64,000 bases of DNA, taken from positions 64,001 through 128,000 of the IMG/VR virus record IMGVR_UViG_3300032327_000953. One strand, written 5' to 3'. The notes below the pieces were generated by a model. It made no database searches and had not been told where the DNA came from. It worked only from the letters and a program-made list of their open reading frames with translations. The first letter of the stretch is position 1; every line of letters starts with the position of its first letter. The position numbers and the translations under genes were made by a program. This DNA is from a virus. Its lineage: Duplodnaviria; Caudoviricetes. Shown piece by piece: positions 12,531-48,632 of this stretch.

Positions 12531-12577
12531 GTAACCTCCAGAGTATGGGTCTATGTTCTATACACCGGGTAAACTAA

Positions 12578-13522
12578 TCAATTATAATATAGATCGTTCT
12601 TAATTTTAGTGTATTTTTTCCAAAAACCATTCTTGTTATTATGTTTCCAATTGATGAGCAAATGCTTTGGAGAAATCTGAAATTTAGTTCCAGAATATAA
12701 AATATTACTATCAATATAACATGTATTATCATAACAAGAAATTAAATCATACTTTGAAGAATTGTCTTTATGAACAAGTGTAATTTTACTATCAATATAA
12801 CCATTTGCAAATTGTAGATTTGATAAATTGATTATGTAACCAAAAATTCTCTCTAGTGAGTGTGGGATTTGTCCTTCTACAGAATCTGATATTGCTCCTT
12901 CTGGAAGCATCTTATAAACACTATCAATAATATCGTTTGTAAAATACCTTTTAAAAATTTTGGTACGTGACATAAAAATAGATCCGGCAAGAAATGACAA
13001 ATCATGCCTAGCTATCTGCTCTACTGGAATATGTAGATAATTATGTAAAATCTGGTATATTAACTCTGTGTTAAATCCTTCTCTTTCTCTATCAAGTAGT
13101 AGTCCCGTATTTCCTATTGCTCCTATGGAACTATTGAAATTCATAAGATCAATATTATTATGAAAAATATCTTCGTTACCTATTAGAGAATTAACAAGAA
13201 GACTTCTCCAAGAAATATTTTTATGAATACCCCACAAAGATTTTTTAGAGTGTAGTTTAATAAAATATGGATATTCATCTTCATCTAGTTCTTTAAGCTG
13301 TAATAAGAATGGCCCTATATCAACTCCCTTATTTGGAAAAACTAGTGTTTTGCAAGAGAATGATTCTTGGGCATCTTCTGATATTAAGGAGTTGTTCTTA
13401 CATAAATCATCTGAGGAAAGAGCTAAGAACAAATCTATTTCAGATTTAATTGGTTCTAGTAGCTGTTTGTATTCTTTCCAGAGTGCCGTATCATATAAGT
13501 ACAATAATACTGCTGTTTTCAT
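12578..13522 (-). CDS. Rhamnan synthesis protein F (RgpF)-like glycosyltransferase
   Basis: PNKGVDIGPFL, KLHSKKS, FLAGSIFMSR and HSLERIFG motifs typical of the RgpF family. Confidence 0.75.
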   Translation of the reverse strand: MKTAVLLYLYDTALWKEYKQLLEPIKSEIDLFLALSSDDLCKNNSLISEDAQESFSCKTLVFPNKGVDIGPFLLQLKELDEDEYPYFIKLHSKKSLWGIHKNISWRSLLVNSLIGNEDIFHNNIDLMNFNSSIGAIGNTGLLLDREREGFNTELIYQILHNYLHIPVEQIARHDLSFLAGSIFMSRTKIFKRYFTNDIIDSVYKMLPEGAISDSVEGQIPHSLERIFGYIINLSNLQFANGYIDSKITLVHKDNSSKYDLISCYDNTCYIDSNILYSGTKFQISPKHLLINWKHNNKNGFWKKYTKIKNDLYYN

Positions 13523-14061
13523 ACTTTATTGATAAACAGGGTTCCTGTCCATATTATATTTTTGCTATTAAGTCCATTAACAATAAAATTAAAAGATCCA
13601 GTAGTATTATCTATAGATAGAGATATAACAACGCTTTCCATACCAGAATCAACAAATGATGTTGTGGATGGTGATCCTACTATCGAAAGAGTACCGCTGC
13701 TATTTCTTTTTATTGCTCCTTGCATATTAAATGATGAACTAGTATCATCAGTAATATTATATGCTGAAATCATTGCTAAAAAGTTTTGAGTTGTGGATAG
13801 TGGTAGATATGTGCTGGAATCCACTAGGGAAAGAGTATATGAGGAATTATTTGTTGTTGTTCCTGATAGTTTGATTATTTCTTTTGGGGTATTGACTGGA
13901 CCAGTTTTTCCTCTTGGGCCTCTTGGGCCGGGTGGTCCTGGAATACCTTGCTTACCAGCTTGTCCTGGAGTACCAGAATTAAACTCAATAATAGTTGATT
14001 GTATAAAATTATCTATTATAGATAGCTTATCTGTTCCATTAATAAGAATTGCTTCTGCCAT
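13519..14061 (-). CDS. Virion-associated protein with a short collagen-like segment
   Basis: GTPGQAGKQGIPGPPGPRGPRGKTGP followed by a beta-rich domain. Confidence 0.55.
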   Translation of the reverse strand: MAEAILINGTDKLSIIDNFIQSTIIEFNSGTPGQAGKQGIPGPPGPRGPRGKTGPVNTPKEIIKLSGTTTNNSSYTLSLVDSSTYLPLSTTQNFLAMISAYNITDDTSSSFNMQGAIKRNSSGTLSIVGSPSTTSFVDSGMESVVISLSIDNTTGSFNFIVNGLNSKNIIWTGTLFINKV

Positions 14062-22570: not shown

Positions 22571-25500
22571 CTACACTCCTATTACCGTTACTCGGTATTG
22601 GTTTGTTGTTGGTGCAGATACAAATATTACTTGGATAGAATTGGTACCCACATAAAGTATATCAGGATAAACATAATAACCAGTGGCAACTTCTCTAACG
22701 ATGACGAAAGAGTCGCTAGTTACACCTAGACTATGGGTGACTGTATAGGTGGTGTTAATTCCATCTCCTATTGTTGTGGAATATGTTGATGCTATACCCT
22801 TTGTGCCTTGAACACCTTGGCTATTTAGATTACCCTGAACACCTTGAAGACCTTGGGTTCCTTGACTATTTAATGTGCCCTGTACTCCTTGAGTCCCTTG
22901 ACTATTTAATGCTCCTTGTACACCTTGACTTCCCTGACTACCATTAGATCCAACAACTCCTTGAACACCCTGCAAACCTTGAACGCCTTGACTTCCGTTC
23001 GATCCGGCACTACCAACGGTACCTTGTACGCCCTGACTGCCTGCCCCAGCTACTCCCTGAGTTCCTTGAGATACTGTAGATGCTATAGTAAGAGTATCAG
23101 TGCCTGCATCGTAATTGAGAGATATTGCTGTACCTCCCTGTAATGATGTTGTTAAATTAGCATAACCTCCTTGTAGACCCTGTAATCCTTGACTACCAAG
23201 TAAGCCTTGACTTCCAACACTTCCTTGAACTCCTTGACTACCACCCAATCCCTGAACTCCCTGAGAGCCTTGAATGCCCTGATTTCCATTAGATCCAGAT
23301 GAGCCGGTATTGCCTTGAGCACCCTGACTACCGTTAGATCCAGATGATCCGACAATACCTTGACTACCTTGACTTCCAACAAATCCATTAGAGCCAACTG
23401 TTCCTTGAGTTCCTTGGCTGTTTAATGTTCCCTGAACACCCTGTAGGCCTTGTAGACCTTGACCACCTATACTTCCTTGGAGTCCTTGTGAGCCTTGGTT
23501 GCCCACCAAACCTTGAACACCCTGACTGCCTGTATTACCTAAAGTACCCTGAGTGCCTTGACTACCATTAGATCCGGTACTACCAACGGTACCTTGAACG
23601 CCTTGACTACCGATGCTACCTTGAACACCCTGACTTCCGATACTTCCTTGAAGTCCTTGTGAGCCTTGACTGCCCGTATTACCTAATGTGCCTTGTGTTC
23701 CTTGACTACCATTTGATCCAGTACTGCCAATGGTACCTTGAGTTCCTTGGCTTCCAGCCCCAGTAGTTCCTTGTGTTCCTTGAGATACTGTAGATGCTAT
23801 CGTTAAAGTATCTGTTCCAGCATCATAATTAAGAGTTATTGCTGTACCACCTTGTAATGAAGTGGTTAAGTTAGCATAACCTCCTTGTAGTCCCTGTGTT
23901 CCTTGTATTCCTTGACTACCGATGCTACCTTGAACACCTTGACTACCGATGCTACCTTGAAGTCCCTGCAAACCTTGAATACCCTGACTGCCAATAACTC
24001 CTTGGATACCTTGTAATCCTTGAAGTCCCTGACTTCCACTTAATCCCTGAGATCCTTGACTACCAATAATTCCCTGTAAACCTTGACTTCCTTGAACTCC
24101 CTGAGTTCCTTGTAGACCTTGAACTCCTTGTAGTCCTTGAGAACCTTGAAGCCCTTGACTTCCTATAGTTCCTTGAAGACCTTGAGTTCCTTGAGTTCCT
24201 TGACTACCTTGACTTCCAATACTACCTTGAACACCTTGGGTTCCTTGGCTACCTTGGCTTCCGATGCTTCCGATGCTTCCTTGTGAACCTTGAGATCCTT
24301 GACTACCAATAATACCTTGAAGGCCTTGTAAACCTTGAATTCCTTGACTACCGATACTTCCTTGAGCCCCTTGTAAGCCTTGAACTCCTTGGCTACCAAC
24401 TAAGCCTTGAACACCCTGAGAGCCTTGAGACCCTTGACTTCCAGCATTACCTTGGAGTCCCTGCAGTCCTTGTAACCCCTGACTTCCGATACTACCTTGA
24501 ACGCCTTGACTACCAATAATACCTTGAATTCCCTGTAATCCCTGACTGCCCTGAGACCCAACAAGACCTTGAAGTCCTTGTAATCCTTGAGATCCTTGAT
24601 TTCCAGATAAACCTTGTAAGCCTTGCAAACCTTGAATTCCCTGAGAACCAATACTTCCTTGAACTCCTTGAGAACTTTCTAATCCTTGAACACCCTGATT
24701 ACCCTGTAATCCTTGTACTCCTTGACTACCAATGCTACCTTGAACACCCTGCAAACCTTGACTCCCCTGGCTGCCGATAGTACCTTGAATTCCCTGCAAG
24801 CCTTGACTACCGACAGTTCCTTGAAGTCCTTGGACTCCTTGGCTACCAATACTTCCTTGAACTCCCTGTATCCCCTGTAAACCTTGTATACCCTGACTAC
24901 CAACCAAACCTTGAACACCTTGTCTTCCTTGCAGCCCTTGAGAACCTTGGCTACCTATGGCTCCTTGAACGCCCTGCAAGCCTTGAATGCCTTGTAAACC
25001 TTGGTTACCTTGGACTCCTTGTAAACCTTGACTGCCAATATTTCCTTGAACTCCCTGAGTTCCTTGAGATCCCTGACTACCAATGGTTCCTTGTAGTCCT
25101 TGTAGGCCCTGTAGTCCTTGAGACCCTTGACTTCCGATACTCCCTTGAACCCCTTGTGTGCCTTGACTACCTTGACTACCAGCCAAACCTTGAATACCTT
25201 GCAATCCTTGTAGTCCTTGACTGCCGATACTTCCTTGAACTCCTTGCAAGCCTTGGCTACCCTGACTGCCAACCAAACCTTGAACACCTTGCAACCCCTG
25301 CAAACCCTGCAAACCTTGAACTCCCTGTAATCCTTGAGTTCCTTGTAATCCCTGCAATCCCTGTAATCCTTGGACACCTTGAAGTCCTTGATTACCCTGT
25401 AAGCCTTGAGATCCTTGCAGTCCTTGAACGCCTTGATTTCCCTCTAATCCTTGAATACCTTGGACTCCTTGCACTCCTTGAACGCCTTGTAGTCCCTGTA

Positions 25501-25771
25501 ATCCCTGAATACCTTGAACTCCTTGAGTACCTTGCATTCCCTGTAATCCTTGAACCCCATGTGATCCTTGAAGTCCTTGTGATCCTTGAACACCTTGTGT
25601 ACCTTGAACTCCAGCGATTGGTAATAATGACCATTTAAGTTCACCATCTCCAATTTTTAGTATATTATTTGTTGTATCATATCCTGGCTCTCCAGCCTCT
25701 AATACTGGATCGACATCTATCCACTCAGCATATGAACCTTTGCGGAGCATGAAAATATTATTTGCAGGCAT
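22571..25771 (-). CDS. Collagen-like (Gly-X-Gln) tail fibre with an Mtd_N/hyaluronidase-N-like domain
   Basis: N-terminal [34 protein letters not shown]; very long (G-X-Q)n tract; C-terminal [16 protein letters not shown] domain; start reassigned to MPANN. Confidence 0.85.
23061..23884 (-). repeat. Duplicated ~100-bp non-collagen interruption in the fibre gene (about 23061-23167 and 23783-23884)
   Basis: Both copies encode [16 protein letters not shown][ST][22 protein letters not shown]. Confidence 0.85.
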
Positions 25772-25858
25772 AATTGATCCATTTATAAAGGTGGTCAGGG
25801 ATATAGTAATATACACTTATTTGATGCATACTATATCTATCTGCATATATTGACAATA

Positions 25859-34988: not shown

Positions 34989-37187
34989 TTAGCCTTCTTC
35001 AGAATGAATTTGAATATAAAAAGCAGTTTTGGACTGTTTGATTTCTTCAACAGTAAGCTGCTTACCAATAGCACTTGTGAGGTTTTTGAGCCATATATTA
35101 TACCCCATTAATATACTTTTGGTGTTTTTTTGATCTATATCGGCCAGTATTTTGATTAATCCAGCTTCATCTATATTTTCAAATGGCTGTAATGAAAATA
35201 ATACTTTACTCTTTAGAGTTTCTATTTCCTGACTTTCAGTATTAGATAAGCTTCTCAAATTTTTCTTTTGATAAAAATCTAGAAGAATAGGATTGAGGCA
35301 GGAGTTGATCCTATCCTGAGTGTCGTTTGCCCATAACATTAGATGTGCGCCAGTTTGTGGGCTGAATACTTTTGTTTTTCTTTTTGTTTGATCCGTACTA
35401 TTTTTTGGTCTTCCTTGGCCGGGCTGACCGGGCAAAGAACTGGGGACATCCTTTGCCAACTGCGTTGGGCTGTTCTGACCAACTGGTGGCTGCTTAAGCT
35501 CTAATGCTGTCTTCTCTCCAGATTTTTTCTTTTCTAATTCAAGACCTACTTGACCAGGAGTAACAGATCCACTCTGTAATGCTATCTTCTTTAAAGCATT
35601 TTCAAGCTGTGGGTCATGCCATGGTCCAGCTTTTCTTGCCATTCTTTCGCTCTTTCTCTCTCTGGATTCTTTATTTAGTCTGAATTTCTCCATATCGGGA
35701 TCAAAGCCAAATCGTGTTTGCAATAATTCGTCAGATATCAGATTTCTATCTGCTAATTGAATTAGTAGAGCTTTTTCAGCATCTTCATTGCTGAGATCCA
35801 TAGTATCAAATTCAATTTTAGCTGGATACTTAAAACCCATAGCTTTTTGTACTGCAATAATTTCTTTCTCCCAAAACTCTACAAGAATATCACGACCATA
35901 CTGAAGTCTTTGGGTTAGTGTCTTGAGACTAATGAAATTGTTTGTGGTGCCAGCAGCACCGAATGTTCCTGTTAAGGTTGGAGGAATTCCAAGACCAGCA
36001 TAAACACTATTTAAATGTGGAACATATTTAGCTTCGCCAAGAAAATTATGTACATTAGTATTGGATTCTAAGAGTTGAATATCTGGACCCCATACTAAGT
36101 CCATTGTGCCTCCACCAACATTATTACCCAAAATACTAGCTAGTTTTGCTGCTGCTGCTTTGGTTGGAGAAATCTTATGTTCTAGACTTCCTAGTTTAAA
36201 AATACGAATATTTGAAATAGCTCCATCAAGAGCTGCCATATCAGCAAGCTTTAGTTTCTCAATGACTGTAATATCATCCATAATAGCATAGATCATTGGA
36301 TATGCCCAACTCTGCCAATCATCTTTTTTATAATGGAATACTGAGACCTTATTAGGATCTAATGGATATGGCTTTCTTGTTTTTGCTGCTTCAATAATTT
36401 GTGGTGGAAGTTTGGATACGATGTCTTGTTCATTTTGATTTTTGGGACTATTAACAGTTTTTCTTAAACCAGCTGGTAAAACTAACTCGTATCTTTTTTC
36501 TGAAACGAATGAAGATAACTGACCAGCAGATACCTCAACATAAACAGGATCTATGAAAGTATATTTCCAAGGAATTTCTCTTTTTTCTAATTGTAAATTA
36601 TCAAGATCATCAATGATCATATCGGGAGCAGCCACTGCTTGATATAGTTTATCTGCAACTTTTAAACTAAGTTTTCCTGTTTGTCTATTAACTACAACAT
36701 TACCAGTTTTATATAGATTATTTAAGAATCTTTCAGTTCTATCTTTTCCTCTTACTCTCTTAAACCACTGACGATAAAATCTTTCAATTCTCTTATTTTT
36801 ATGTACAAGCTTGATTCCTTGAGCTGCAAAATCACCCATGAGATCAATTACATTTTTTACTAATCCAACTTTTTGATATATATCATCAGCTCTTCTAAGA
36901 ATAGCTTTGACTTGAGTTGGTACTGCTTCAGATGGTCTAAAGAAATCATAATCAGAACGAGTTAAACCAGGACGACCACCGACATTGGGAGTAAGATTAG
37001 AATAGTCGATTCCATATCTTAAAGATCCCTGAGCTTTCTGAATGCCTATATATTCTTCCAAAGATCCAGCATTAGCGTCTAGTGCTGCTTGCCTACTAGC
37101 CTGATCATCTCCCCATGTAATATAGGCCGGAATATCGGTCGATGAGCTATTTTGGATTGATTCGCTTTTTGGATACTTTTTGGCCAT
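34989..37187 (-). CDS. Portal protein
   Basis: 732 aa between terminase and protease; VKNVIDLMGDF and WAYPMIY patterns. Confidence 0.75.
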   Translation of the reverse strand: MAKKYPKSESIQNSSSTDIPAYITWGDDQASRQAALDANAGSLEEYIGIQKAQGSLRYGIDYSNLTPNVGGRPGLTRSDYDFFRPSEAVPTQVKAILRRADDIYQKVGLVKNVIDLMGDFAAQGIKLVHKNKRIERFYRQWFKRVRGKDRTERFLNNLYKTGNVVVNRQTGKLSLKVADKLYQAVAAPDMIIDDLDNLQLEKREIPWKYTFIDPVYVEVSAGQLSSFVSEKRYELVLPAGLRKTVNSPKNQNEQDIVSKLPPQIIEAAKTRKPYPLDPNKVSVFHYKKDDWQSWAYPMIYAIMDDITVIEKLKLADMAALDGAISNIRIFKLGSLEHKISPTKAAAAKLASILGNNVGGGTMDLVWGPDIQLLESNTNVHNFLGEAKYVPHLNSVYAGLGIPPTLTGTFGAAGTTNNFISLKTLTQRLQYGRDILVEFWEKEIIAVQKAMGFKYPAKIEFDTMDLSNEDAEKALLIQLADRNLISDELLQTRFGFDPDMEKFRLNKESRERKSERMARKAGPWHDPQLENALKKIALQSGSVTPGQVGLELEKKKSGEKTALELKQPPVGQNSPTQLAKDVPSSLPGQPGQGRPKNSTDQTKRKTKVFSPQTGAHLMLWANDTQDRINSCLNPILLDFYQKKNLRSLSNTESQEIETLKSKVLFSLQPFENIDEAGLIKILADIDQKNTKSILMGYNIWLKNLTSAIGKQLTVEEIKQSKTAFYIQIHSEEG

Positions 37188-37236: not shown

Positions 37237-39276
37237 TTAGTTCTTATATATTCCTTTATATATATCGTCATTCGCACCTCCAGTAAACCACTCTGGCCCC
37301 TTATATAGTTTATCATCATCAGATGGTGCTATGTTTGTTCTAAAGTCACCAATCATATTATATTCCATTGGTTTCATTGCTCTGGCAAGCTGTCTGGCCA
37401 ACATGTTAGCTATAACTAATGCGCTATATCGGTCTTTTCTTAATCTTCCTTTTTTGCCATTAGGCATTTTAACTTCTGGAGTATCCCATCTATCTCTAGC
37501 ATTAGAACCAGTACTAGTTTGAGTCATAACTATAGTAGTTAATTCATTTTTCAATTCTTCTATTTCTAAAATACATTCGCTATATGTATCATATATTGGA
37601 TTTAAATCTGTAGAAACTATATCTCTACCCTCAGCATCAAGAGCTAGTCCTAATGTAAGATTATCAAAGCGTGGAAATAATAATAACTTATCTTCTAGAT
37701 CTTTACGTAAACCATGATTAGCCTGTGCTGTCCAATCGGCTTTAGCAAATTGCACTAATTCTAGAATATGTAATCCTGCTTGATCATCAGTATCTCTAGA
37801 TTTATTTGGATCTACTGCTGGCCATATTAGATTTTCTCCTTCTTCTAATTTTGATGGATCATGAAATGCTTCTTCAATTGCCACACCACCACCCTGAGCA
37901 TCCATTCCTATTCGTATGGGAGGAAAACTTTTCATTAGATTGCGAATTTTTCTACAACAGAATCCATAAAAATCATGTTCATTAATTAATCCAGTTTTCT
38001 GTCTTTCTTTAAAATTAGCTCGATTAGTAGACCATCCATATACTACCCTATTATGATCATGATGAACTTCTATAATTACTATGCTAAAATTATCTTGTTC
38101 ACTAGCTGGGTCGATTCCATAAACATATTTACAGTCAGGATTGCCTTTTGTGGATGCATCAAATATAATTGATTTATCATTAACTTTAATATTATTAGAG
38201 TCTCCCACAACGCAGCTCTCAATTAAACTTCTTCTGAAGAATCCTTCGCTATCGCTAATAAAACAAGCAGCATATTCCATATTATAAATACCAGAATGTA
38301 TAGTAGCTTTTGCTCTACTTACTTGCTTATCATCCATGAATCCTTTTGGAATTAATTCATACGGGATACGAATGATTGAATAATCTTGCCAATTAAAATT
38401 ACTGGGAACTTCTCCTTTAAAAATTTCTTCTAATTTTCTAACATCTCCTCTGCTTTCAATAATTCCCTTGTATCTTTTCCAATAACTGGCAAAATGCTTG
38501 AAACCATAATCAGCAGTTCCAGATATGATGGCTTGATTTCCCATTTTGAAATTAATAATATCTAATTCATCATTCCATAATCCTGCTTCAATCATAGCTT
38601 GTCTTTTAGCTTGCTCTTTAACATTCTGTATTGGACTAGCGGATACGGCAGCGAATCCCGATACTACTGTCTCATAAATCTCTGGACTTATAGATGCAAA
38701 TTCGTCTGCAATGATAATATGGGCACGCAAACCTCTAATCTTACTTCCATCACCCATAGGAATAGCTATGGTCCAACTATCTCCTAGTCTCATAGTACAT
38801 CTATCAACGTCTCTTCTTGGTCCGTCATCATTGCCATTAAAAATACTTCTTAATATTGGACTACCTCTCCAAATAGTTTCCATATATTCAAAAATAATCT
38901 TACTCTGACGAAAAGCAGCACCGACAACCACAATCTTGGTTCCTGGAAAGAATGTCATTCGTAAAATACAGTATAATGATAGAAGAAATGATTTACCCCA
39001 ACCACGACTTGCAACATACATGGGAAATGCTCGTACCCAAAATTCTTGCAAAATACAAATCTGCATAGGATGCAACTCAATATTGAAAAGAAGTTTACAT
39101 GTTGATCCAATATATTTTGGATTTCTCAGTATCCTCATTAAATGAAGATCTGGATTTTCTATCTCCTTTTCAGTTCTATTGATCATAAGATTATGACCAA
39201 GAGATAATGAAGATATTTCTCCTAAGCCTAACCAGGCATCGTCAAATCTTGTTGTTTGATTTACTGTGGATTTCAA
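37237..39276 (-). CDS. terL: Terminase large subunit
   Basis: Walker A ASRGWGKS, Walker B IIADEF, KIRGLRA and nuclease YGIDPA motifs. Confidence 0.92.
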   Translation of the reverse strand: MKSTVNQTTRFDDAWLGLGEISSLSLGHNLMINRTEKEIENPDLHLMRILRNPKYIGSTCKLLFNIELHPMQICILQEFWVRAFPMYVASRGWGKSFLLSLYCILRMTFFPGTKIVVVGAAFRQSKIIFEYMETIWRGSPILRSIFNGNDDGPRRDVDRCTMRLGDSWTIAIPMGDGSKIRGLRAHIIIADEFASISPEIYETVVSGFAAVSASPIQNVKEQAKRQAMIEAGLWNDELDIINFKMGNQAIISGTADYGFKHFASYWKRYKGIIESRGDVRKLEEIFKGEVPSNFNWQDYSIIRIPYELIPKGFMDDKQVSRAKATIHSGIYNMEYAACFISDSEGFFRRSLIESCVVGDSNNIKVNDKSIIFDASTKGNPDCKYVYGIDPASEQDNFSIVIIEVHHDHNRVVYGWSTNRANFKERQKTGLINEHDFYGFCCRKIRNLMKSFPPIRIGMDAQGGGVAIEEAFHDPSKLEEGENLIWPAVDPNKSRDTDDQAGLHILELVQFAKADWTAQANHGLRKDLEDKLLLFPRFDNLTLGLALDAEGRDIVSTDLNPIYDTYSECILEIEELKNELTTIVMTQTSTGSNARDRWDTPEVKMPNGKKGRLRKDRYSALVIANMLARQLARAMKPMEYNMIGDFRTNIAPSDDDKLYKGPEWFTGGANDDIYKGIYKN

Positions 39277-39724: not shown

Positions 39725-40004
39725 AATGTTCAGCCACTATTTTTAGGAAAACTGCCTCATAAATTGCTTCCATGCCCGTTATCATCTTATGATGTTCTTT
39801 GCATAAGGTGATTCCATTTTTTGGTTCAAATCTTAATCCAGGATAATGCGCCCATTGTTTAATATGATGAGCATTAAGTTTTTTCTTAATAGAACATCCT
39901 GGCCATTGGCATTTGTGATTATCTCGTGAATAAACTTCTTTGCGCCATTTTTTGTATAAAGGATCATTGAAATCTCTAAGCATGAGTAAAAACCTCAATA
40001 TCAT
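39711..40004 (-). CDS. HNH endonuclease (packaging-associated type)
   Basis: RDNHKCQWPGC, AHHI and NGITLCKEHH motifs. Confidence 0.85.
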   Translation of the reverse strand: MILRFLLMLRDFNDPLYKKWRKEVYSRDNHKCQWPGCSIKKKLNAHHIKQWAHYPGLRFEPKNGITLCKEHHKMITGMEAIYEAVFLKIVAEHYDKK

Positions 40005-40968
40005 TAGTTACCATATCTTTTACTAAATCTTCAAAACTAATTTGTGGAAACCATTTTAATTCTCGTCTAGCCCTATCGCTCTTACCGCATAAATAATCTA
40101 CTTCGGCCGGACGATATAAGTTATGGTCTATCTCAACATGTTTAGTATAGTCTAAGTTAACATATTCAAATGCTGTTTTAAGAAACTCAAGAACAGTATG
40201 GGTTTTACCAGTACAGATAACATAGTCTTGAGGATAATCATTTTGTAACATTAAAAACATTGCATTCACATAATCCTTAGCATGGCCCCAGTCTCTGCTA
40301 GAATTAAGATTACCGAGTTTTAAATTTTCTTTAATATTATGATTTACTAGTTGTCCTATATATTTGGTAATCTTTCGTGTAACAAATTGTTCTCCTCGTC
40401 TCGGACTTTCATGATTAAATAAAATACCACTCACGGCAAATATACCATATGCTTCTCGATATATCTGTACTAATCTGTGAGATGCTAGCTTTGCAACACC
40501 ATAAGGACTTTGTGGTAATAGTTCTGTAGTTTCATCTTGATATTTAACGCCATCTTTATCTGTGCTAAAATTACGACCAAACATTTCACTTGTGCTAGCT
40601 TGATAAAATTTGGTGGTGGGAGATGTTCTTCTGATAGATTCTAATATGTTGACTACTCCAACCGTATCTATTTGAAATGTTGTTGATGGCTGCTTAAAGC
40701 TTGTTCCAACATGACTTTGAGCTGCTAAATTATAAAACTCATCTGGTTGATAATGATTAATAATATAGTCGCAGATACTAGGATCGGTAATATCAAATTC
40801 TTCCAATTGAAACTCTGGATTATCTATTAGATGATTTATTCTTTCAAAATTATTGATACTACTTCTTCTGTGTAAACCAATAACTTTATATTTGTGTTTC
40901 AGTAGTAGCTCCGACAGATAGGAACCGTCTTGTCCAGTGATACCAGAAACTAATGCTATTTTAGCCAC
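39976..40968 (-). CDS. gmd: GDP-mannose 4,6-dehydratase
   Basis: GITGQDGSYL, NLAAQSHV, QASTSEMFG, SPYGVAK, LFNHESPRRG and RDWGHA motifs. Confidence 0.95.
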   Translation of the reverse strand: MAKIALVSGITGQDGSYLSELLLKHKYKVIGLHRRSSINNFERINHLIDNPEFQLEEFDITDPSICDYIINHYQPDEFYNLAAQSHVGTSFKQPSTTFQIDTVGVVNILESIRRTSPTTKFYQASTSEMFGRNFSTDKDGVKYQDETTELLPQSPYGVAKLASHRLVQIYREAYGIFAVSGILFNHESPRRGEQFVTRKITKYIGQLVNHNIKENLKLGNLNSSRDWGHAKDYVNAMFLMLQNDYPQDYVICTGKTHTVLEFLKTAFEYVNLDYTKHVEIDHNLYRPAEVDYLCGKSDRARRELKWFPQISFEDLVKDMVTNDIEVFTHA

Positions 40969-41524
40969 GATATGCTCCTTCTGTTTTTTTCACAACCCAA
41001 CAATCACCATGCATTGTGTTAATATTGGAAAATTTTTCATTTACTGCTTGCTTAACACCAGGATGATAGTGCGAATAATCATGACCAGCTATATATCCAT
41101 TAAATTTAACTTTAGGATACCACGCTTCAATATCTTCTTTAACACATTCATACATATGACACATATCAATAAATACTACATCTAAAGATTTGTCTTCAAA
41201 GTTTTTTGAAGCTTCTAATGAATTTGATTTGATAGTAGTAAATTTTCTATTTCCCATATTATTTAAAAATAGTTGGTATATATCATGTGTTTTAGCTAAA
41301 CTATGAGTATCATCAATTTCTTCAATAGATCCTTTCCAATTATCAACAATAAATACATTAATATTTTTAGATAGTGACTGAATTTTATCACATAAGTAAG
41401 CTGAGCTTTTACCTAGCCAAGCTCCTCCTTCCACAAAGGTACCATTTTCTGGTATGCTATCTATAAGAAAATCAAAAGTTTCTTCGTAATTAAACCATCC
41501 GTCTATTTGATCTGAATTTTTCAA
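40961..41524 (-). CDS. SAM-dependent methyltransferase (Methyltransf_24-like)
   Basis: VEGGAWLGKS, DVVFIDMCH and GYIAGHDY motifs. Confidence 0.8.
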   Translation of the reverse strand: MKNSDQIDGWFNYEETFDFLIDSIPENGTFVEGGAWLGKSSAYLCDKIQSLSKNINVFIVDNWKGSIEEIDDTHSLAKTHDIYQLFLNNMGNRKFTTIKSNSLEASKNFEDKSLDVVFIDMCHMYECVKEDIEAWYPKVKFNGYIAGHDYSHYHPGVKQAVNEKFSNINTMHGDCWVVKKTEGAYRG

Positions 41525-41528
41525 GATA

Positions 41529-42335
41529 TTATTCCTTTACTGTGTCTGGTGTTAAAAAGGGACGATCTATTACTCCGTCTTGATAAGTATGTAGTTCAGA
41601 CATTTTTTTCAAGTTGTTTTGCGCTGCCATACTTAGTATAGCTATTTCCTTACCTTCTTTTTCTCTCAACTCTTCATCTTCCAACATTCGGATTAATCCT
41701 GTCCAACTACTTTTTCCATCTTCTATTCTTTTTATTCTTTGTTCTCGTGTAGCTTTAAGATCTTTACTAATTTTTTGCTGTTCATTAAGAAGCTTGGTAT
41801 ACTCATTAGTGTAATTAGCGATACTGTTGCGGGCAAACGAAAGTTGAGTTTCAAGATTAGCCAGTTTAGGAATATCTCGTTGATCTTCAGGTTTTTCATA
41901 TTCTTTATCAACCTGTCTTTGGAGTTTTTCGGTTTCTGCTATATGACGCTTTCTTTCTTTCATGCTTCTATTAATAAGAATATCAATTGTGATAAATTGT
42001 TTGATCTGTAATTCTTCTGCTGGTAAAACGTCTTCTCTAAATTGTTTTATTAAACCAACCCATGTATCTTCAAAATACTGAAGTTCGCCCGTATCTTCAT
42101 CAAACTGACGTTTAATTTCATTCCAGAATGTTTTGCTATGTAATTTATACTTCAAATAATCATTATTATTTTTTTCAGTATCTGGAATCATTAGAGCCTG
42201 CTCATCAATATATCTTTTAATTGGAGCGGAGCTTCGATTTAGTTGTTCTGCTATTTGATCTATAGTGAGAGATTCAACATTATCTCTAATGAATTTCTCT
42301 TCATCTAGTCCTAGCTGTCCTCGCTTTTTTGGCAT
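41529..42335 (-). CDS. HTH plus coiled-coil protein, possibly terminase small subunit
   Basis: N-terminal LTIDQIAEQLNRS HTH-like segment; lies upstream of terL. Confidence 0.4.
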   Translation of the reverse strand: MPKKRGQLGLDEEKFIRDNVESLTIDQIAEQLNRSSAPIKRYIDEQALMIPDTEKNNNDYLKYKLHSKTFWNEIKRQFDEDTGELQYFEDTWVGLIKQFREDVLPAEELQIKQFITIDILINRSMKERKRHIAETEKLQRQVDKEYEKPEDQRDIPKLANLETQLSFARNSIANYTNEYTKLLNEQQKISKDLKATREQRIKRIEDGKSSWTGLIRMLEDEELREKEGKEIAILSMAAQNNLKKMSELHTYQDGVIDRPFLTPDTVKE

Positions 42336-43006
42336 ACTTTTATCTTATCTATTAGGGTTTTAATATATTGTTGTAGCTTAAGTAATTGTTGTTTAGGAAC
42401 CTTTAATCCATGTTTCAACTTTAAATAGTTCTCTCTATATTCTTGCTCAATATTTTTATCTAAGTAATCTAATAGTTCTTTATTCTCAATTTTATCGACT
42501 AAATTATTGCTAGAAAATACCGAAGCTTCAGGATCCTTCTCAATGTATGTTGGCTGCATAATATTCTTTTTGGTTTCATTTCTGTGAGACCAACTAGCAT
42601 ATAGTTCACAGTCTTGCTTGCTGCTGTATTTTGAACACTGATTCTTAGAACAGGCATACGTCTTATCGAAAAAAGGACAGCCAAAACAAGGCTTGTCAGG
42701 ACGCTGATAGTTATTTCTTTTATAGTTGAAAAGTCGATTGCGTATGTGGGTCCATAGGAAATTTTCCAAGGGACGTTTATTATCGTACTTTTGAACACCC
42801 TCTAAAGCAAAAATATATGCCTGTTGCTTCATGTCATCAAAATCATGATAACCAAATTTGAATTTATATCCTAACCTTTTGCTAATATTTTCAACTACTC
42901 TGATAAATTCTTTTTCATCAATATCATGAGGTAATGAGGACGTTTCTATAACTGGTTTATTCTTGGTGGTTTTCTTGACTATTTTTTTCTTGTTCTTTTT
43001 CTTCAT
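42311..43006 (-). CDS. Phage sigma-70-family factor (region 2-like) with a Cys-rich insert
   Basis: DFDDMKQQAYIFALEGVQKYD...NFLWTHIRNRLFNYKR. Confidence 0.7.
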   Translation of the reverse strand: MKKKNKKKIVKKTTKNKPVIETSSLPHDIDEKEFIRVVENISKRLGYKFKFGYHDFDDMKQQAYIFALEGVQKYDNKRPLENFLWTHIRNRLFNYKRNNYQRPDKPCFGCPFFDKTYACSKNQCSKYSSKQDCELYASWSHRNETKKNIMQPTYIEKDPEASVFSSNNLVDKIENKELLDYLDKNIEQEYRENYLKLKHGLKVPKQQLLKLQQYIKTLIDKIKVCQKSEDS

Positions 43007-43501: not shown

Positions 43502-43529
43502 GGGCGGGTCTAGTACCTGCCCTTTTTAT
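43502..43529 (+). terminator. Intrinsic terminator
   Basis: GGGCGGGT-CTAGT-ACCTGCCC followed by TTTTT. Confidence 0.75.
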
Positions 43530-43547: not shown

Positions 43548-44786
43548 ATGGATATATTAAAATACGAAGAAGAAGTAAAGATTTTTTTAAAGTCAAAATC
43601 TAAAGGAGAGAAACTTATTGAAGAGTATGTTTCTTTTTGTAATTATTTACTTTATATGGATTCTGATATTGTGTTAGAAGTAACTGATAAATTAAAGAAT
43701 AATATAATAGAATATGCTACTAATAATAGTTTAGTTTATAAGGACTTTAATCCAGAAAAGATTTATTCTAGAAAAGATCTGAATAATAATGAATGTTGGT
43801 TTGTTAAAGATTTGAAAGAAGAAAATCAGATATTTAATACTAGTGGTAGTAGTAGCGGAGAACCTTTTAGTTATGGTGTGTGGAACAAATATATTAGATT
43901 CTTAGAAGACGAAAGTCATTATGGAATGATTTTGGATGAATTTCATATTAATAAAAAGAATCCTAAAATATTAATGCTTAAAAAATTAGCATATAATCCA
44001 AGTCATAAAGAATTTTTACATAAGCAAGAAGGAGATTCTCCATATACTCTTCATACTCATAAGAGCATTGATAGCATAAGGTATTTTGTTAATTTTGAGA
44101 ATTACATGAATAATAATGATAGTTGGTTTGAAGAATTGTTGCAGAAAATAAGGCCTATTGTGCCATTTGACATTATTATGATTACTGGGCCAATAATGAA
44201 TTCTTTGGTAAATTATTTGACTAAAAATAATATTGATATAAAGTTGGGGAATTTGATGAGTCAGACCGGGGAGTTTATGAGATTGGTTGATAAGGAAACG
44301 ATTATATTAAAAAAATATGCTAATAATGTTTGTGATCATATGAGATGTTGGGATGGTGGAGCAACTTTTTTTACATGTCGATATGATACGTATCATTTGT
44401 TAGATAATTTGAGTTGGGTAACTCAAGGAGCGGACAATAAGATGATTAGTACTGATTATTTTAATTTATCCTCTCCTTTTGTTAATTATTACAATGGAGA
44501 TCTTTGTGAGATTAAAAATGATTATTCCAGATGTGAGTGTGGAAGATTATATAGACCTTTTAGAATGATAGAGAATCGTCCTTTCGCTTTAAAGGGACCT
44601 GGAAGATTGACCGATATAAAACAACAAATATCTCAATTATCTTTTAGGAATGATTTAAATCAAATTCAATTTGAGAATCTTAGTGTCAGGGTGGTATCAA
44701 ATAGGATTTTGGATCAATCGGAAAAAGAAAAGCTAAAGAGTGTATTAACTGGATATGAGATTATATATCAGGAAAATAACACATGA
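43548..44786 (+). CDS. Adenylate-forming (ANL) enzyme, PaaK/CapK/F390-synthetase-like
   Basis: TSGSSSGEP P-loop-like motif, YYNGDL (YxxGD) and CECGR. Confidence 0.7.
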   Translation: MDILKYEEEVKIFLKSKSKGEKLIEEYVSFCNYLLYMDSDIVLEVTDKLKNNIIEYATNNSLVYKDFNPEKIYSRKDLNNNECWFVKDLKEENQIFNTSGSSSGEPFSYGVWNKYIRFLEDESHYGMILDEFHINKKNPKILMLKKLAYNPSHKEFLHKQEGDSPYTLHTHKSIDSIRYFVNFENYMNNNDSWFEELLQKIRPIVPFDIIMITGPIMNSLVNYLTKNNIDIKLGNLMSQTGEFMRLVDKETIILKKYANNVCDHMRCWDGGATFFTCRYDTYHLLDNLSWVTQGADNKMISTDYFNLSSPFVNYYNGDLCEIKNDYSRCECGRLYRPFRMIENRPFALKGPGRLTDIKQQISQLSFRNDLNQIQFENLSVRVVSNRILDQSEKEKLKSVLTGYEIIYQENNT

Positions 44787-45838
44787 GCTATGATAATAAT
44801 GGGCCGATTTATAGTGTTCTAAATGGCAAATCTCCTTGCGGAGCTTATGATGGTGTGGAATTGGATGGCTCCACAGTTAATGGAGTAGTATTAAATGGAT
44901 CAAATTGTACTGAAGGAAAATTAGGTCCGTATTGCCGAGGAGGAATCGTTTCTGGGTGGTGTTGTTTTGGTCCTTGTTCTAGTAATTCAGACTGCTTGAA
45001 TTCTAATCCTTGTACTAATGGATCTTGTTGTGGTGTTGTTCCTTGTTCTGTTACTCCTAATGATTGTACCACAAGGTTAGTATTTCGTCCTTATTTTGAT
45101 GATTCATATTCAGGCGCTGGTATTACTGGTGATACTGGAGCATGGCCCAAATCTATAAGAGTTATTATCGCTGGAAATGTTAATTCAAATTTGAATATGA
45201 CTGTGGATCTTAATGGTTCAAACTATAGTAATTCTTATGGAGGAGGAAACTGGAACAAAACCCTGTCTCCTACTATGAGCATTAGCGTATCAAGAGATAT
45301 GGGTAATGGATATTCTAGTCCTTTTTACTCAAGAAGTAATCCTTATTATGGTCCAAGTTCTGGGGGAGTTGGTGCTTGGAATGTATCAATTAATGAAATA
45401 GATCCTAACGGAGATCCAGAATGGGGCCCTACTACCATATCAAGTTTTAACGGAACTATTCCAGTACTAGTTCACAGAGTAGTATCTCCATCAGTAACAA
45501 TCGAAGGAGTAGGTAGTTATAATTTGGAATTAAGTCCAATACAAGAACAAAAGACTTTTTTTACTTGTGCTTATTGTTTTGCTACTCTTTACGGAGATGT
45601 TGAGACTAATTATCCTCAGGGAGATAGTCCTAACTATGGATACGGAAGAACTTTTTGGTATAATATGAGTGAGTATACAACAACAAGAGAATATTTTGAT
45701 CAAGGTATAATATCGGGAGGTAAATGTGTTTCGGTTATTACTGGACAAAGAAATGGATATCAATATAGTCCAGCAATAGAGAATCTATCTGATATTACGG
45801 ATGGTCAACGATCAATTAAAATACAATCTATGGGATAA
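44783..45838 (+). CDS. Cys-rich protein 1 with shared N-terminal leader (351 aa)
   Basis: MSYDNNGPIYSVLNGK; 12 Cys in the first ~95 aa. Confidence 0.75.
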   Translation: MSYDNNGPIYSVLNGKSPCGAYDGVELDGSTVNGVVLNGSNCTEGKLGPYCRGGIVSGWCCFGPCSSNSDCLNSNPCTNGSCCGVVPCSVTPNDCTTRLVFRPYFDDSYSGAGITGDTGAWPKSIRVIIAGNVNSNLNMTVDLNGSNYSNSYGGGNWNKTLSPTMSISVSRDMGNGYSSPFYSRSNPYYGPSSGGVGAWNVSINEIDPNGDPEWGPTTISSFNGTIPVLVHRVVSPSVTIEGVGSYNLELSPIQEQKTFFTCAYCFATLYGDVETNYPQGDSPNYGYGRTFWYNMSEYTTTREYFDQGIISGGKCVSVITGQRNGYQYSPAIENLSDITDGQRSIKIQSMG

Positions 45839-45841
45839 TTT

Positions 45842-46204
45842 ATGATGTATAATAATACTGGTCCTATTTATAGTGTTTTAACAGGTAAGGGTGATGGATA
45901 TTTGTGTCAAGGAGGTTTGGGGTGTGCTCCTTGCTATAGTTGTTTAGGAGGTCCTAATACTTATGCTGATTTAAATACCTGTCAACAAAATTGTATAATA
46001 AGAAATCCTTTAACTGGATGTGGGCCATCTGCTAATTGTCCAGAAGGTTATTGTAGGTATAGTACTTGCGTGAGCGAGCAAGATCCTTCCTATAACCCAA
46101 CCATGATGAGCTGCGGATATCCTACACAAATTAATTGTTATACTTATGTAGTATCAGATTCGGAAAGTTCTTTGAATTGTATTTCATATTGTGATAATGT
46201 TTAG
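45842..46204 (+). CDS. Cys-rich protein 2 with shared leader (120 aa)
   Basis: MMYNNTGPIYSVLTGK; 14 Cys. Confidence 0.75.
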   Translation: MMYNNTGPIYSVLTGKGDGYLCQGGLGCAPCYSCLGGPNTYADLNTCQQNCIIRNPLTGCGPSANCPEGYCRYSTCVSEQDPSYNPTMMSCGYPTQINCYTYVVSDSESSLNCISYCDNV

Positions 46205-46273
46205 AAAGAAATTTTAGGTTATCTTGTCAATCTCCAGTCTCTTTCTATAATAAAGAAACCAAGGAGACTTAAT

Positions 46274-46678
46274 ATGATTAATACTAATAATGTGACCGAT
46301 GTTCTGCCAATGTTGATTAAAGATGATGAAACTTTCTCAAAACTAAAGAATGCCTTTCCTTCCATATTAGCGGATCTTGTTACTTTTAAAGATAATCCTA
46401 ATTGTACCTGTCGAGGAAAAGTCTTTAAGTTTTTTACTGAACAGCTAGAAAAGAATAGTTCAGTATTAGATACTTATGTTAAGGACGCTTCAGAAATAAC
46501 TCTTAAGCTACAATCTTTAAATGAAGAAAGAGCTAATAATAATTATGCAGGAAAAGTTTTTGTGATTGATAAGGGTGACGAAGCTTGGAAGAATTTCGCG
46601 GCCAATCTGCCTGGCAAAATGTTTAGGATGTTTAGTGTGGCCGAAAGAGATAATAAAGTTGCAGTTTATTTCTTATGA
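46274..46678 (+). CDS. Hypothetical protein with a CxC motif
   Basis: DNPNCTCRGK; AAGGAG RBS; possible TTGTCA-N16-TATAAT promoter at 46224-46251. Confidence 0.65.
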   Translation: MINTNNVTDVLPMLIKDDETFSKLKNAFPSILADLVTFKDNPNCTCRGKVFKFFTEQLEKNSSVLDTYVKDASEITLKLQSLNEERANNNYAGKVFVIDKGDEAWKNFAANLPGKMFRMFSVAERDNKVAVYFL

Positions 46679-46965
46679 CACTTTTTATAATTTATCTATT
46701 CACTTCATTAGCTCTAAGTTATGCTTGGAGCGATACTGAAATTAGTGTACCATTAAGAAATTTGGTTGCGCGAGTTCCGTACATTAGTAAGCCTTTGCTT
46801 TGTCATGAGTGCGTTAGCTTTTGGATTAGTTTAACTCTTTCGTATTTTTTTAATCCTTTGGAAGATCTGACTCAGCCAATAGTGAGCAACTTATTGAGTG
46901 CTTTCTGTGGATTCTTCATTAATATGATCTTTGTGCGAAAGCATCTGATTCCTTATAAGGACTAA
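46675..46965 (+). CDS. Small membrane protein with CxxC (DUF1360-like)
   Basis: Three hydrophobic segments; KPLLCHECVSFW. Confidence 0.6.
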   Translation: MTLFIIYLFTSLALSYAWSDTEISVPLRNLVARVPYISKPLLCHECVSFWISLTLSYFFNPLEDLTQPIVSNLLSAFCGFFINMIFVRKHLIPYKD

Positions 46966-47010
46966 GGGTGTATATATTATCTCAGTAGTCATCCTCTATA
47001 AGGCGTTTAA

Positions 47011-47427
47011 ATGATATATGATAATAATGGACCAATATATAGCATCCTAGATGGGAAAAATCCAGTACCTCCGTGTTTATATTATTATACAGGGAGGATT
47101 GGTATGGGTGGTCGAAATGAATGGAGATTAATTGGTGGCGGCAATGGAGGTTGTGCTCAGACTAATAGCAATTGTTTTAATTTGACTTTTAATCCATGCT
47201 TACCAGAACAGCCAGGATGTGATCAAAAGTACGGAGAGACTACAACGATTTGTGTTGCTGGAAATGATGGATCAATATCTTCTACTACTAGAACAGTGCT
47301 TTATTACTGTTATAATGATAATGGGGATATTGGTTGTTGGGAGTGTGATACATACGCTGACTATCTCTCATTTTGTCCAGAACGTGTAACGACATATACT
47401 AGTAATAATTGTGATGGTAATTGTTAA
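47011..47427 (+). CDS. Cys-rich protein 3 with shared leader (138 aa)
   Basis: MIYDNNGPIYSILDGK; 12 Cys. Confidence 0.75.
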   Translation: MIYDNNGPIYSILDGKNPVPPCLYYYTGRIGMGGRNEWRLIGGGNGGCAQTNSNCFNLTFNPCLPEQPGCDQKYGETTTICVAGNDGSISSTTRTVLYYCYNDNGDIGCWECDTYADYLSFCPERVTTYTSNNCDGNC

Positions 47428-47451
47428 TTCTTAAAATAAAAAGGAAAATAT

Positions 47452-48054
47452 ATGAAACTAAATAATACTATATCAATAACTCCTCCTCCTTTTACTAATA
47501 ATCTTGGAAAAGTAGTTTATCCAGATACATTGGTATTAGATAATTTAGATTTAGTATTTACTGATAATCCAATAAATAAAACAGTAAGTGTTAATCTTCT
47601 TGGAATACAAACTCCAATTAATCTTTGGTCTGGATCAGAATATGATCTTGTGGGGGACTGGACTCAAGCTCAAGCTGAAGATAAATTAACTGAAATATTA
47701 GGAGATGATCCAGCAGCATTTTTACGATCATTATTTCCAAAAACTTTGGAGGAATATCCAAATAATCCAGGAACAGTTCTGGTTAAAGTTCTAAAAAATC
47801 AAGGAGTTGTAATATCAGATAATTGTTCTTGTACAAAATATATCTTAGAAATGAACGAGAATGGTAATGATTGGTGTGTTGAAAATATAGAAAAAATAGT
47901 AGCTTGGCTCAAAGTAGAAGCAAATAATCTTAAAATTATATTCATAGATAGTGTTGCAAAACTATTAATTATGCGAGCAATTAAAAAATCTCGTAGACTA
48001 TTAAATAATCAGCCGGTTCCAACTAATGACTCAGATCTGGATATTATGGAATAA
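47452..48054 (+). CDS. Hypothetical protein with a CxC...WC domain
   Basis: NPGTVLVKVL...NCSCTKYILEMNENGNDWC. Confidence 0.65.
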   Translation: MKLNNTISITPPPFTNNLGKVVYPDTLVLDNLDLVFTDNPINKTVSVNLLGIQTPINLWSGSEYDLVGDWTQAQAEDKLTEILGDDPAAFLRSLFPKTLEEYPNNPGTVLVKVLKNQGVVISDNCSCTKYILEMNENGNDWCVENIEKIVAWLKVEANNLKIIFIDSVAKLLIMRAIKKSRRLLNNQPVPTNDSDLDIME

Positions 48055-48056
48055 AA

Positions 48057-48260
48057 ATGGTATATAATAATGAAGGTCCAATATATAGTATTTTGAGTGG
48101 CAAACCATGTTCTGGTAATTGTAAGGTACAATGGTATCAGGATGGAGGAGGAGGATGGGATGCTTTTGAAAATAATTGTCCAGCAGGATGTGATTGTGTA
48201 ATTCCTGGGGACTCTGGATATAATGATGAGATACGAACTGTTAACTGTGCAACAGTTTAA
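48057..48260 (+). CDS. Cys-rich protein 4 with shared leader (67 aa)
   Basis: MVYNNEGPIYSILSGK; 6 Cys. Confidence 0.75.
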   Translation: MVYNNEGPIYSILSGKPCSGNCKVQWYQDGGGGWDAFENNCPAGCDCVIPGDSGYNDEIRTVNCATV

Positions 48261-48335: not shown

Positions 48336-48632
48336 ATGAAAAAGATATTAGCTGGAATATTATTGTTTGTTGCAGGAAATGTTGCTCTTGGTGATGAGGG
48401 TTGGGTTCCTTATGTTTATCATCCTCCGGTTGTGGTTCAACAAGTTCCAGCGGCAGTTGCTGCTCCATACTATTATTATGTTCCAGTGGTAACTATGGTG
48501 CCTGTGGTTCCTCAGTACGTTCCTGTGACAAGTTATCAAAATGTTCTGGTGGAGCGTCGATACCACTGTTTTTTTAAAAGATATGAGGTACTAAGTGTGC
48601 CTCAGACTGTTTATGTTCCAAATCGGTACTAA
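48336..48632 (+). CDS. Putative secreted Val/Pro/Tyr-rich protein
   Basis: Signal-peptide-like MKKILAGILLFVAGNVALG. Confidence 0.6.
   Translation: MKKILAGILLFVAGNVALGDEGWVPYVYHPPVVVQQVPAAVAAPYYYYVPVVTMVPVVPQYVPVTSYQNVLVERRYHCFFKRYEVLSVPQTVYVPNRY

Follow-up and report, generated by a model that had tools for sequence, protein, structure and literature searches.

A short lysine-ended N-terminal tag on diverse phage proteins, genetically linked to a predicted PaaK-like ligase

The DNA analysed (the window, 64,000 nucleotides) comprises bases 64,001-128,000 of an IMG/VR phage record of 238,135 bp with direct terminal repeats (IMGVR_UViG_3300032327_000953). It carries a cluster in which a divergent, predicted adenylate-forming ligase of the ANL superfamily is followed by four open reading frames (ORFs) whose products begin with the same 16 residues (the tag) and then differ. 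Ligase and tagged genes were found together in related phages, and the variant of the tag followed the clade of the ligase. The following features were assigned in the cluster.

43502..43522, plus strand: terminator-like GC-rich hairpin with a T-run, the upstream boundary of the cluster.
43548..44786, plus strand: divergent PaaK-family (ANL superfamily) protein of 412 amino acids (aa), a predicted adenylate-forming ligase (AlphaFold2 (AF2) model with Foldseek, invariant motifs).
44783..45838, plus strand: tagged protein 1 (351 aa, 15 Cys), whose first 16 residues, ending in K16, are the tag.
45842..46204, plus strand: tagged protein 2, 120 aa, 14 Cys; body CPEGY...CVSYCDNV.
46274..46678, plus strand: conserved 134-aa partner with an invariant N-P-N-C-x-C loop (C44/C46), assigned from an AF2 model and from recurrence beside the enzyme.
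46675..46965, plus strand: 96-aa membrane protein with conserved L-L-C-H-E-C-x-S-F-W (CHEC is a CxxC), in every case paired with the 134-aa gene.
46967..46974, plus strand: promoter-like motif GGTGTATA, 37 nt upstream of tagged gene 3.
47011..47427, plus strand: tagged protein 3, 138 aa, 12 Cys, with the shared N-terminus.
47452..48054, plus strand: 200-aa CxC protein (C125/C127) with a C-terminal PGT-L..L...G...C-x-C...MN.NG.(E/D)WC module; its membership of the system is doubtful.
48057..48260, plus strand: tagged protein 4, 67 aa, 6 Cys, with the shared N-terminus.

The common N-terminus reads M-x-Y-[DN]-N-x-G-P-I-Y-S-[VI]-L-x-G-K and was confirmed on the four ORFs singled out in an initial annotation made from the sequence (44783, 45842, 47011 and 48057), as were the lengths of the bodies past the tag (335, 104, 122 and 51 aa, respectively) and the even Cys counts of the three small proteins (14, 12 and 6). 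A six-frame scan of the entire genome returned exactly these four copies. Complete divergence of the bodies, also claimed in that annotation, was borne out: BLAST of the tag-stripped sequences found no similarity to one another or elsewhere in the genome. The body of tagged protein 2 has homologues in other records, and every one of them carries the tag. Of the 11-13 leader residues that are identical in a pair of paralogues, 4-7 differ in synonymous codon, so the peptide has been kept by selection and not by recent DNA duplication. The start of gene 44783 overlaps the stop of the ligase ORF as ATGA, as first reported, and this overlap suggests translational coupling of the enzyme and the first tagged gene.

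The 412-aa protein had been called an ANL-family enzyme, a call that holds by fold and finds no match in Pfam. No Pfam match was obtained at E<=1 and no PHROG family was assigned; the sole curated match was NCBIfam TIGR02304 ('F390 synthetase-related'), with 25 bits against a cutoff of 252. An AF2 model built on 25 homologues (predicted local distance difference test (pLDDT) score 89) showed the two-domain ANL fold, with PaaK-type matches along its full length. In Foldseek the first match was BT_0428 (E 2e-16), then ClxA, PaaK1/2, HCL, AjiA1 and NatL2, ranging to E 1e-10 (structures 4r1m, E 2.4e-16, and 2y27, 9s45, 6tm4 and 6wuq; all with probability 1.00). T98-S-G-S-x-x-G-x-P-F107, Y314-x-N-G-D318 (YWNGD) and R344...K349-G350 are invariant in an alignment of 25 sequences (alignment A1); the A3 phosphate loop, A7 Y-x-x-G-D and A8 hinge R...K-x-G are all present, and A7 and A8 were aligned with ClxA by profile search. 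Six Cys are invariant in the same alignment, and C329 and C331 align with Cys of ClxA. The enzyme is, on the basis of the model, assigned to a divergent PaaK-like ANL clade, and ATP-dependent adenylation of a carboxylate is its predicted activity.

The whole-protein fold, phosphate loop, Y-x-x-G-D and hinge R...K-G are shared with ClxA, NatL2 and AjiA1 and with the aryl-coenzyme A (CoA) ligases PaaK1/2 and BT_0428, whereas sequence identity to PaaK-family structures is only 11-18% and the A10 lysine of the family is not conserved in the phage enzyme. The PaaK-family enzymes ClxA and NatL2 acylate N or O nucleophiles without CoA (PMC9400959, PMC7204872, PMC12519233). These relatives have a small-molecule pathway as genetic partner; that of the phage enzyme is a ribosomally made protein tag. 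The enzyme is present in single copy in the genome of the window, and hundreds of homologues were found, mostly on contigs of 100-500 kb.

Scanning IMG/VR with the enzyme profile gave 37 loci. In a maximum-likelihood tree the enzymes fell into clade A (support 100/99), clade B (100/96) and long-branch outgroups (<=32% identity). Linkage was counted over the clade A and B loci with a plus-strand ORF starting -20..+150 nt from the enzyme stop (n=17): the first downstream ORF was tagged in 14/17, against 10/1228 of the other ORFs, 7 of those 10 being further true paralogues. The tagged gene typically starts within ~70 nt of the enzyme stop. A truncated ORF after the enzyme in L018 is also tagged, and L071 has the same arrangement. 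The first gene after the enzyme in L016 (1678 aa, five Laminin_G_3 lectin-type domains) has no clear tag and was not counted as tagged. In two clade-A loci (L005:11225-11404 and L006:11199-11393) the enzyme is followed by a gene for an untagged protein of 59-64 aa that has 12 Cys and a signal peptide like that of lipoproteins; the L006 genome has a tagged Cys-rich gene ~100 kb off (L067).

Thirty-seven tagged proteins were compiled and anchored on the Lys. Their common core is phi-[YF]-[SA]-x-L-x-x-K (W occasionally at the Y/F position), and its K falls at residues 11-24; M-E-T-I-Y-S-N-L-G-G-K is the shortest of the tags. Lys is the sole residue found in all 37 tags, and a regex-free MAFFT alignment (A2) had it conserved in >=90% of rows. 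The first Cys follows the tag Lys within <=6 residues in 30/37. Scans of IMG/VR for leader DNA gave 3 true tags among 5 matches with a first pattern and 15/15 true N-terminal tags with a second.

Tags and enzyme are both present in the complete genomes G000 and G007 and in the 79%-complete G001. The opposite case raised in the initial annotation, relatives with the leader that lack the enzyme, was not seen at this level, as every complete or near-complete tagged genome has the enzyme. Tagged records that lack the enzyme are fragments (29-65% complete), four of which hold a 56-aa gene identical to one in G007. The co-occurrence proposed for checking was strongly positive, with tagged genes directly after the enzyme in two deep clades; it is strong though perhaps not absolute, as two clade-A records gave no tag with the profile used.

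Among 185,579 prokaryotic species genomes a single locus was found (L071), on a phage-like contig of a metagenome-assembled genome, in the order GT2, enzyme and a protein with ...NLIWSLAKNGC (K at residue 29). Since this one locus is phage-like, the system appears to be virus-restricted. Searches of the GenBank phage collection matched neither the DNA of the region nor, at the protein level, the enzyme and the 200-aa product.

The form of the tag follows the enzyme. GP[IV]YS..K tags (MNNEPIFSVLSGK, ...DQDGPIYSILEDK and MIYNNDGPIYSVLSGGK) occur only with clade A, and phi-phi-F-[SA]-L..K tags (...WNIIFALADK, ...PEILFSLTDK, ...NVVFSLAK, ...DDILFVMLAK and ...KDVLFSLLDK) only with clade B; the outgroup enzyme loci have no tags. 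The 381-kb genome G001 (IMGVR_UViG_3300032334_002567) has a clade-A and a clade-B enzyme as well as both types of tag, with a type-B client after the clade-B copy and at least five type-A clients clustered ~145 kb from the clade-A copy. Frames matching the enzyme profile were located in this genome at 53.8, 86.4, 108.2 and 120.5 kb: two full paralogues, and two frames (420-434 aa) in which the match is confined to the centre of the profile and which may be more distant members of the enzyme family. A conserved leader beside a candidate modifying enzyme was therefore found by both measures, position (14/17) and type; fold, tag, genetic linkage and co-variation are all direct observations of the analysis.

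The co-variation counts against one alternative, a passive docking or targeting tag that, like the T4 capsid-targeting sequence, serves as a non-covalent address and brings variable adhesive or disulfide-rich modules to a virion component or an export route while the ligase and neighbouring sugar genes decorate the same surfaces: the tag variant tracks the enzyme clade even inside one genome with both, and in two deep clades the tagged genes immediately adjoin or overlap that of the enzyme. The tag moreover ends in Lys and not in an x-x-Glu site, the specificity of prohead proteases of the T4 and phiKZ type, and no virion partner was identified in this analysis. In favour of docking, tagged genes are sometimes unlinked from the enzyme; further evidence for it comes from the bodies and from the genomic setting described below.

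The proteins that carry the tag (clients) measure 56-2654 aa, many of them 56-190 aa with 6-20 Cys. Their bodies are mostly unrelated (one homologous pair among 21). The client of 2654 aa consists of 27 STIG1-like repeats (PF04885) and has 455 Cys, and the body of another opens with a long TPTLTPT Thr/Pro mucin-like repeat. The description of the bodies as Cys-rich, given in the initial annotation, stands as a frequent property and not as a defining one: three of the compiled clients have no Cys, and two homologous Cys-free clients measure 277 and 312 aa. No single residue is common to the bodies for one enzyme to modify. The tag N-termini, inspected by eye, have a polar start and no long hydrophobic run, and none is signal-peptide-like. 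To judge from their sequences, the clients belong to the extracellular type of binding or structural module, to which the tag is added as a portable N-terminal element. Because the bodies are unrelated, the tag is the only feature that a shared enzyme could recognise. The possibility, named at the outset, that the leader is merely the first strand of one known fold was ruled out by its position ahead of unrelated bodies. The adhesin-like, extracellular character of the bodies, with STIG1-like and Thr/Pro mucin-like repeats, would also suit a docking address.

The same clients bear on whether the cluster encodes a ribosomally synthesised and post-translationally modified peptide (RiPP), the reading first offered, in which the leader would recruit the ligase to modify the core and would later be cut after Lys, possibly by phage trypsin-family proteases. 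A conserved leader, a hypervariable core and an adjacent modifying enzyme fit that pattern, as do several small clients (56-140 aa) with even Cys counts. Clients of up to 1438-2654 aa with domain-scale repeat arrays are not short precursors, however, and three Cys-free clients and the lack of any residue common to the bodies weaken the case further. Scans with Pfam, PHROGs and NCBIfam detected no RiPP recognition element (RRE), transporter or known RiPP enzyme family. Trypsin-family genes do occur in the same genome, and lie ~1 kb from the enzyme in six loci; those of the window's genome are tens of kb away from the cluster and carry signal peptides, and there is no protease inside the cluster. 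Moreover, Lys-Pro is the ending of 13/37 tags, and trypsin-type enzymes are poor at cutting this bond. For these reasons (distant genes, signal peptides, common Lys-Pro junctions) a trypsin-family protease was set aside as leader peptidase. A classic RiPP is unlikely, and the RiPP-like reading as a whole was judged highly improbable.

The trypsin-family (PF00089) genes with signal peptides in the window's genome number two (G000:C1:177909-178622 and 180946-181569, both outside the window). A gene of this family was also found near the enzyme in L004, L016, L018, L022, L023 and L028, and in five clade-B loci such a gene, on the other strand, precedes the GT2-enzyme pair by ~1 kb.

Interleaving of two CxC proteins (46274 and 47452) and a CxxC membrane protein (46675) with the tagged genes was found as initially described. 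The 134-aa and 96-aa genes are next to each other and in many cases overlap; the pair recurs beside the enzyme in 10 viral-contig loci of both clades. The AF2 model of the 134-aa protein (pLDDT 92) has a helical domain with the N-P-N-C-x-C loop and a small C-terminal beta domain, and matched no solved fold (Foldseek E>0.6, VIA Z<=4.7). A thioredoxin-like protein was rejected, as the segment before the CxC is helical (H29-40) and no thioredoxin-fold match was obtained; noise rows of the VIA search (NisB/MadB N-terminal regions, Z 4.0-4.5) were not used as evidence. The family has 205 representative clusters, and the longer relatives sampled have internal duplications or N-terminal extensions with no added domain recognisable by eye. 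Atlas feature searches with the 134-aa and 200-aa proteins were uninformative. For the 96-aa protein Atlas proposed DUF1360 (0.90-0.91), which was not confirmed (PF07098: none in the genome at E<=10; Pfam hmmscan: none at E<=1). Homology between the 134-aa and 200-aa CxC proteins was rejected at an hhalign probability of 8% over 16 columns. Pfam, PHROGs and NCBIfam applied to all cluster proteins gave nothing usable beyond the sub-threshold TIGR02304 match of the enzyme.

L019 and L026 likewise have the C-terminal module of the 200-aa protein next to their enzyme/tag pair. The family of this protein is also found in the structural module of another, related phage group with no tags nearby, so the protein was not counted as core. 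Between tagged genes of two loci (L010:12904-13416 and L041:9457-10053) lies a conserved protein of 170-198 aa with the motif R-D-P-x-x-R-F-x-S, which resembles carbohydrate sulfotransferases; a sulfotransferase-like reading of it was dropped for want of a Pfam match.

A recurrent context of glycosyltransferase and sugar-nucleotide genes had been missed in the initial annotation. In 12 clade-B loci and in L071 the gene immediately before that of the enzyme is a GT2; a GDP-mannose-dehydratase-family gene occurs near the enzyme in 12 loci (the window gene included) and GlmS in 4. Enzyme homologues are fused to GT47 (PF03016), GT2 (PF00535) or methyltransferase (PF13578) domains, and GT34-like and GT2-like genes flank an unlinked cluster of tagged genes. 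Two genes of the window belong to this context.

39976..40968, minus strand: gene of the GDP-mannose-4,6-dehydratase/epimerase family, members of which lie close to the enzyme in 12 loci.
40961..41524, minus strand: Methyltransf_24 (weakly TylF-like) methyltransferase; this domain is fused or adjacent to enzyme homologues elsewhere.

One enzyme-GT47 fusion (714 aa; L068:2198-8437) stands directly after two Mtd_N (PF18454) tail-fibre-type genes, one with 32 Cys; Methyltransf_24 and GT2 genes come after the fusion, and a PP-binding carrier-protein gene lies 6 kb away. In L069 a second, different PaaK-like gene (CSTSGSTGEP; 12197-13808) lies beside a TylF-like methyltransferase, 4 kb from a 712-aa enzyme fusion.

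These neighbours support a second alternative, that the ligase is a glycan-pathway enzyme which amidates or acylates a sugar acid together with the GT2, GT34, GT47, dehydratase and methyltransferase proteins, the tag being read by another factor and the tagged proteins being glycosylated substrates or carriers. Besides the upstream GT2 genes, the dehydratase-family and GlmS genes, the three kinds of domain fusion and the glycosyltransferase-like genes around the unlinked cluster, it can draw on the Thr/Pro-rich client, such stretches being typical of O-glycosylated linkers. Phage virion glycosylation itself is already known (PMC10527164, cited in PMC12619734). The cluster of the window has no glycosyltransferase between 43.5 and 48.6 kb, however, the upstream GT2 is absent from clade-A loci, and it is the tag, not the glycosylation-prone features of the bodies, that co-varies with the ligase clade. 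The joint reading of sugar enzyme and glycosylated carriers was accordingly held to be distinctly unlikely, if less so than a RiPP-like route.

The tagged cluster sits at the edge of the structural region. On the minus strand the window has a collagen-like tail-fibre protein of 1081 aa (22571-25816) with very strong PHROG tail-fibre matches, and a separate ORF of >2155 aa (1-6465) that extends past the window start; together with the portal (34989-37187) and terminase (37237-39276) genes, these give the cluster that position. Downstream of the tagged cluster, 48336-48632 (plus strand) encodes 98 aa comprising a signal peptide and a body rich in Pro, Val and Tyr; ORFs resembling it come after the cluster in L009 (12762) and L010 (14154).

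The motif GGTGTATA occurs in 7 copies in the window against 1.8 expected (positions 7063, 12559, 21715, 31843, 37229, 46967 and 60904). Five of the seven stand 28-60 nt before start codons in the correct orientation, among them those of the portal gene (start 37187, minus strand) and of tagged gene 47011; further minus-strand genes are also preceded by the motif. The late-type motif initially reported before 47011 is therefore present, and precedes the portal gene as well. The motif may be a phage promoter element, possibly read with a phage sigma-like factor (42311-43006, Sigma70_r2), and its distribution lends modest support to co-expression of 47011 with structural genes. A shared motif before one tagged gene and the portal gene, and the enzyme-GT47 fusion that adjoins Mtd_N tail-fibre-type genes, speak for the docking alternative. 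Set against the coupling of tag variant to ligase clade, docking was considered unlikely, though the best supported of the alternatives.

The reading tentatively preferred, held at well below even confidence, is a phage protein-tagging system in which the ligase acylates the tag lysine (N-epsilon) and thereby gives varied extracellular modules a common handle. Because the bodies share nothing and the tag Lys is the sole universal residue, chemistry on the tag, if there is any, is the simplest reading. The components would be the PaaK-family ligase (43548-44786), the 134-aa CxC and 96-aa CxxC membrane partners, and the clients with the tag. The ligase would recognise the tag and activate a carboxylic acid as acyl-adenylate; the acyl group would then be moved to the epsilon-amine of the tag Lys, either directly, as ClxA and NatL2 do with small-molecule nucleophiles, or via a thiol of a partner protein. 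Co-encoded glycosyltransferases, sugar-nucleotide enzymes and methyltransferases may build or extend the attached group, which may be sugar-derived or glycosylated later. Disulfide-rich domains, STIG1-like arrays and Thr/Pro mucin-like stretches would in this way gain a common handle, for example for display on the virion or on the envelope of the infected cell. That catalysis takes place on the tag and that Lys accepts the group are inferred, as are the kind of acyl group and the place where the products end up. A thioester relay is a speculation compatible with a Cys soon after the tag Lys in most clients and with the invariant CxC of the partner. A more specific version, in which a ligase of large aquatic phages covalently modifies the Lys of a portable 8-residue tag, possibly by an E1/E2-like CxC relay, and so couples clients, from a 56-aa disulfide knot to the 2654-aa array, to a common acyl or glycan handle or to the virion, was regarded as possible and somewhat more doubtful.

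Several observations weigh against protein tagging by the ligase. The link between enzyme and tag is a genetic one, and action of the first on the second is presumptive. Fisher's test on the linkage counts (p 6e-24) is descriptive only, because the loci share ancestry and the pattern came from the same data, and the invariance of the Lys is partly built into the regex used for compilation. The C-terminal A10 lysine, the residue that ANL enzymes normally use for adenylation, is not conserved, and no Lys is kept after residue 358 in alignment A1; K/R358 might substitute for it. The enzyme also falls below threshold in every curated family model (Pfam, NCBIfam). With the profile used, no tag was found in the clade-A genomes G009 (89% complete) and G011 (74%), and tagged genes lie up to 100-145 kb from the enzyme (~100 kb in G010). 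The 134-aa/96-aa pair also stands beside the 712-aa enzyme fusions (L069/L070) with no tagged gene within 6 kb, and some enzyme homologues fused to glycosyltransferase or methyltransferase domains likewise have no tagged gene within 6 kb. Because of such fusions and the frequent flanking sugar genes, the enzyme could act on a sugar instead of a protein.

Several known systems resemble parts of the proposed one. RiPP leaders share the N-terminal recognition segment before hypervariable sequence and the multiple paralogous substrates beside one modifying enzyme; here, by contrast, the core of the tag is ~8 residues, the 'cores' reach 2654 aa, no protease/transporter pair or RRE was found in the scans described, and the sole invariant residue belongs to the tag, an indication that the chemistry takes place there. 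To our knowledge, no RiPP pathway has an ANL enzyme as its primary, leader-dependent enzyme. The lipoate- and biotin-protein ligases LplA and BirA follow the logic proposed here, an adenylated acid being amide-linked to a specific Lys in a conserved acceptor motif. Their fold is of the class II aminoacyl-tRNA synthetase type and not ANL, and their acceptor is a folded domain of ~80 aa, whereas the phage acceptor would be a short terminal tag. The clade-B ending ...L-x-D-K-[APG] resembles the lipoyl D-K-A motif, a lead only.

The capsid-targeting sequence of the T4 internal proteins IPI-III is, like the tag, a short N-terminal peptide on unrelated phage proteins. It ends at a Glu-specific prohead-protease site, whereas every one of the 37 tags ends in Lys and they have no conserved Glu; it also has no counterpart to the genetic coupling of tag and ligase. 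In mycobacteriophage virion glycosylation (Freeman et al. 2023, PMC10527164), glycosyltransferases and methyltransferases are likewise clustered with presumed decorated proteins. The sites modified there are the C-termini of capsid and tail-tube subunits, and that system is not known to have an adenylating ligase or an N-terminal Lys tag.

The enzyme superfamily and the principle of tag- or leader-directed modification are already known. No description of the enzyme/tag module was found in the searchable literature, and the pairing of a PaaK-like ligase with a short Lys tag on huge, diverse extracellular-type phage proteins appears to be undescribed. If the preferred reading is true, the ligase would be the first of the ANL family whose dedicated partner is a ribosomal protein tag, and the two would form a new enzyme/tag pair for site-specific protein modification in widespread uncultured jumbo phages; a short portable tag with its own ligase may also be of use as a bioconjugation tool. 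Even as a docking signal only, the tag defines a large unannotated class of phage proteins and a simple sequence rule by which members can be found. As a modification system it would help to explain how such phages deploy diverse disulfide-rich, mucin-like and other extracellular-type modules, probably for adsorption or interactions with the host surface.

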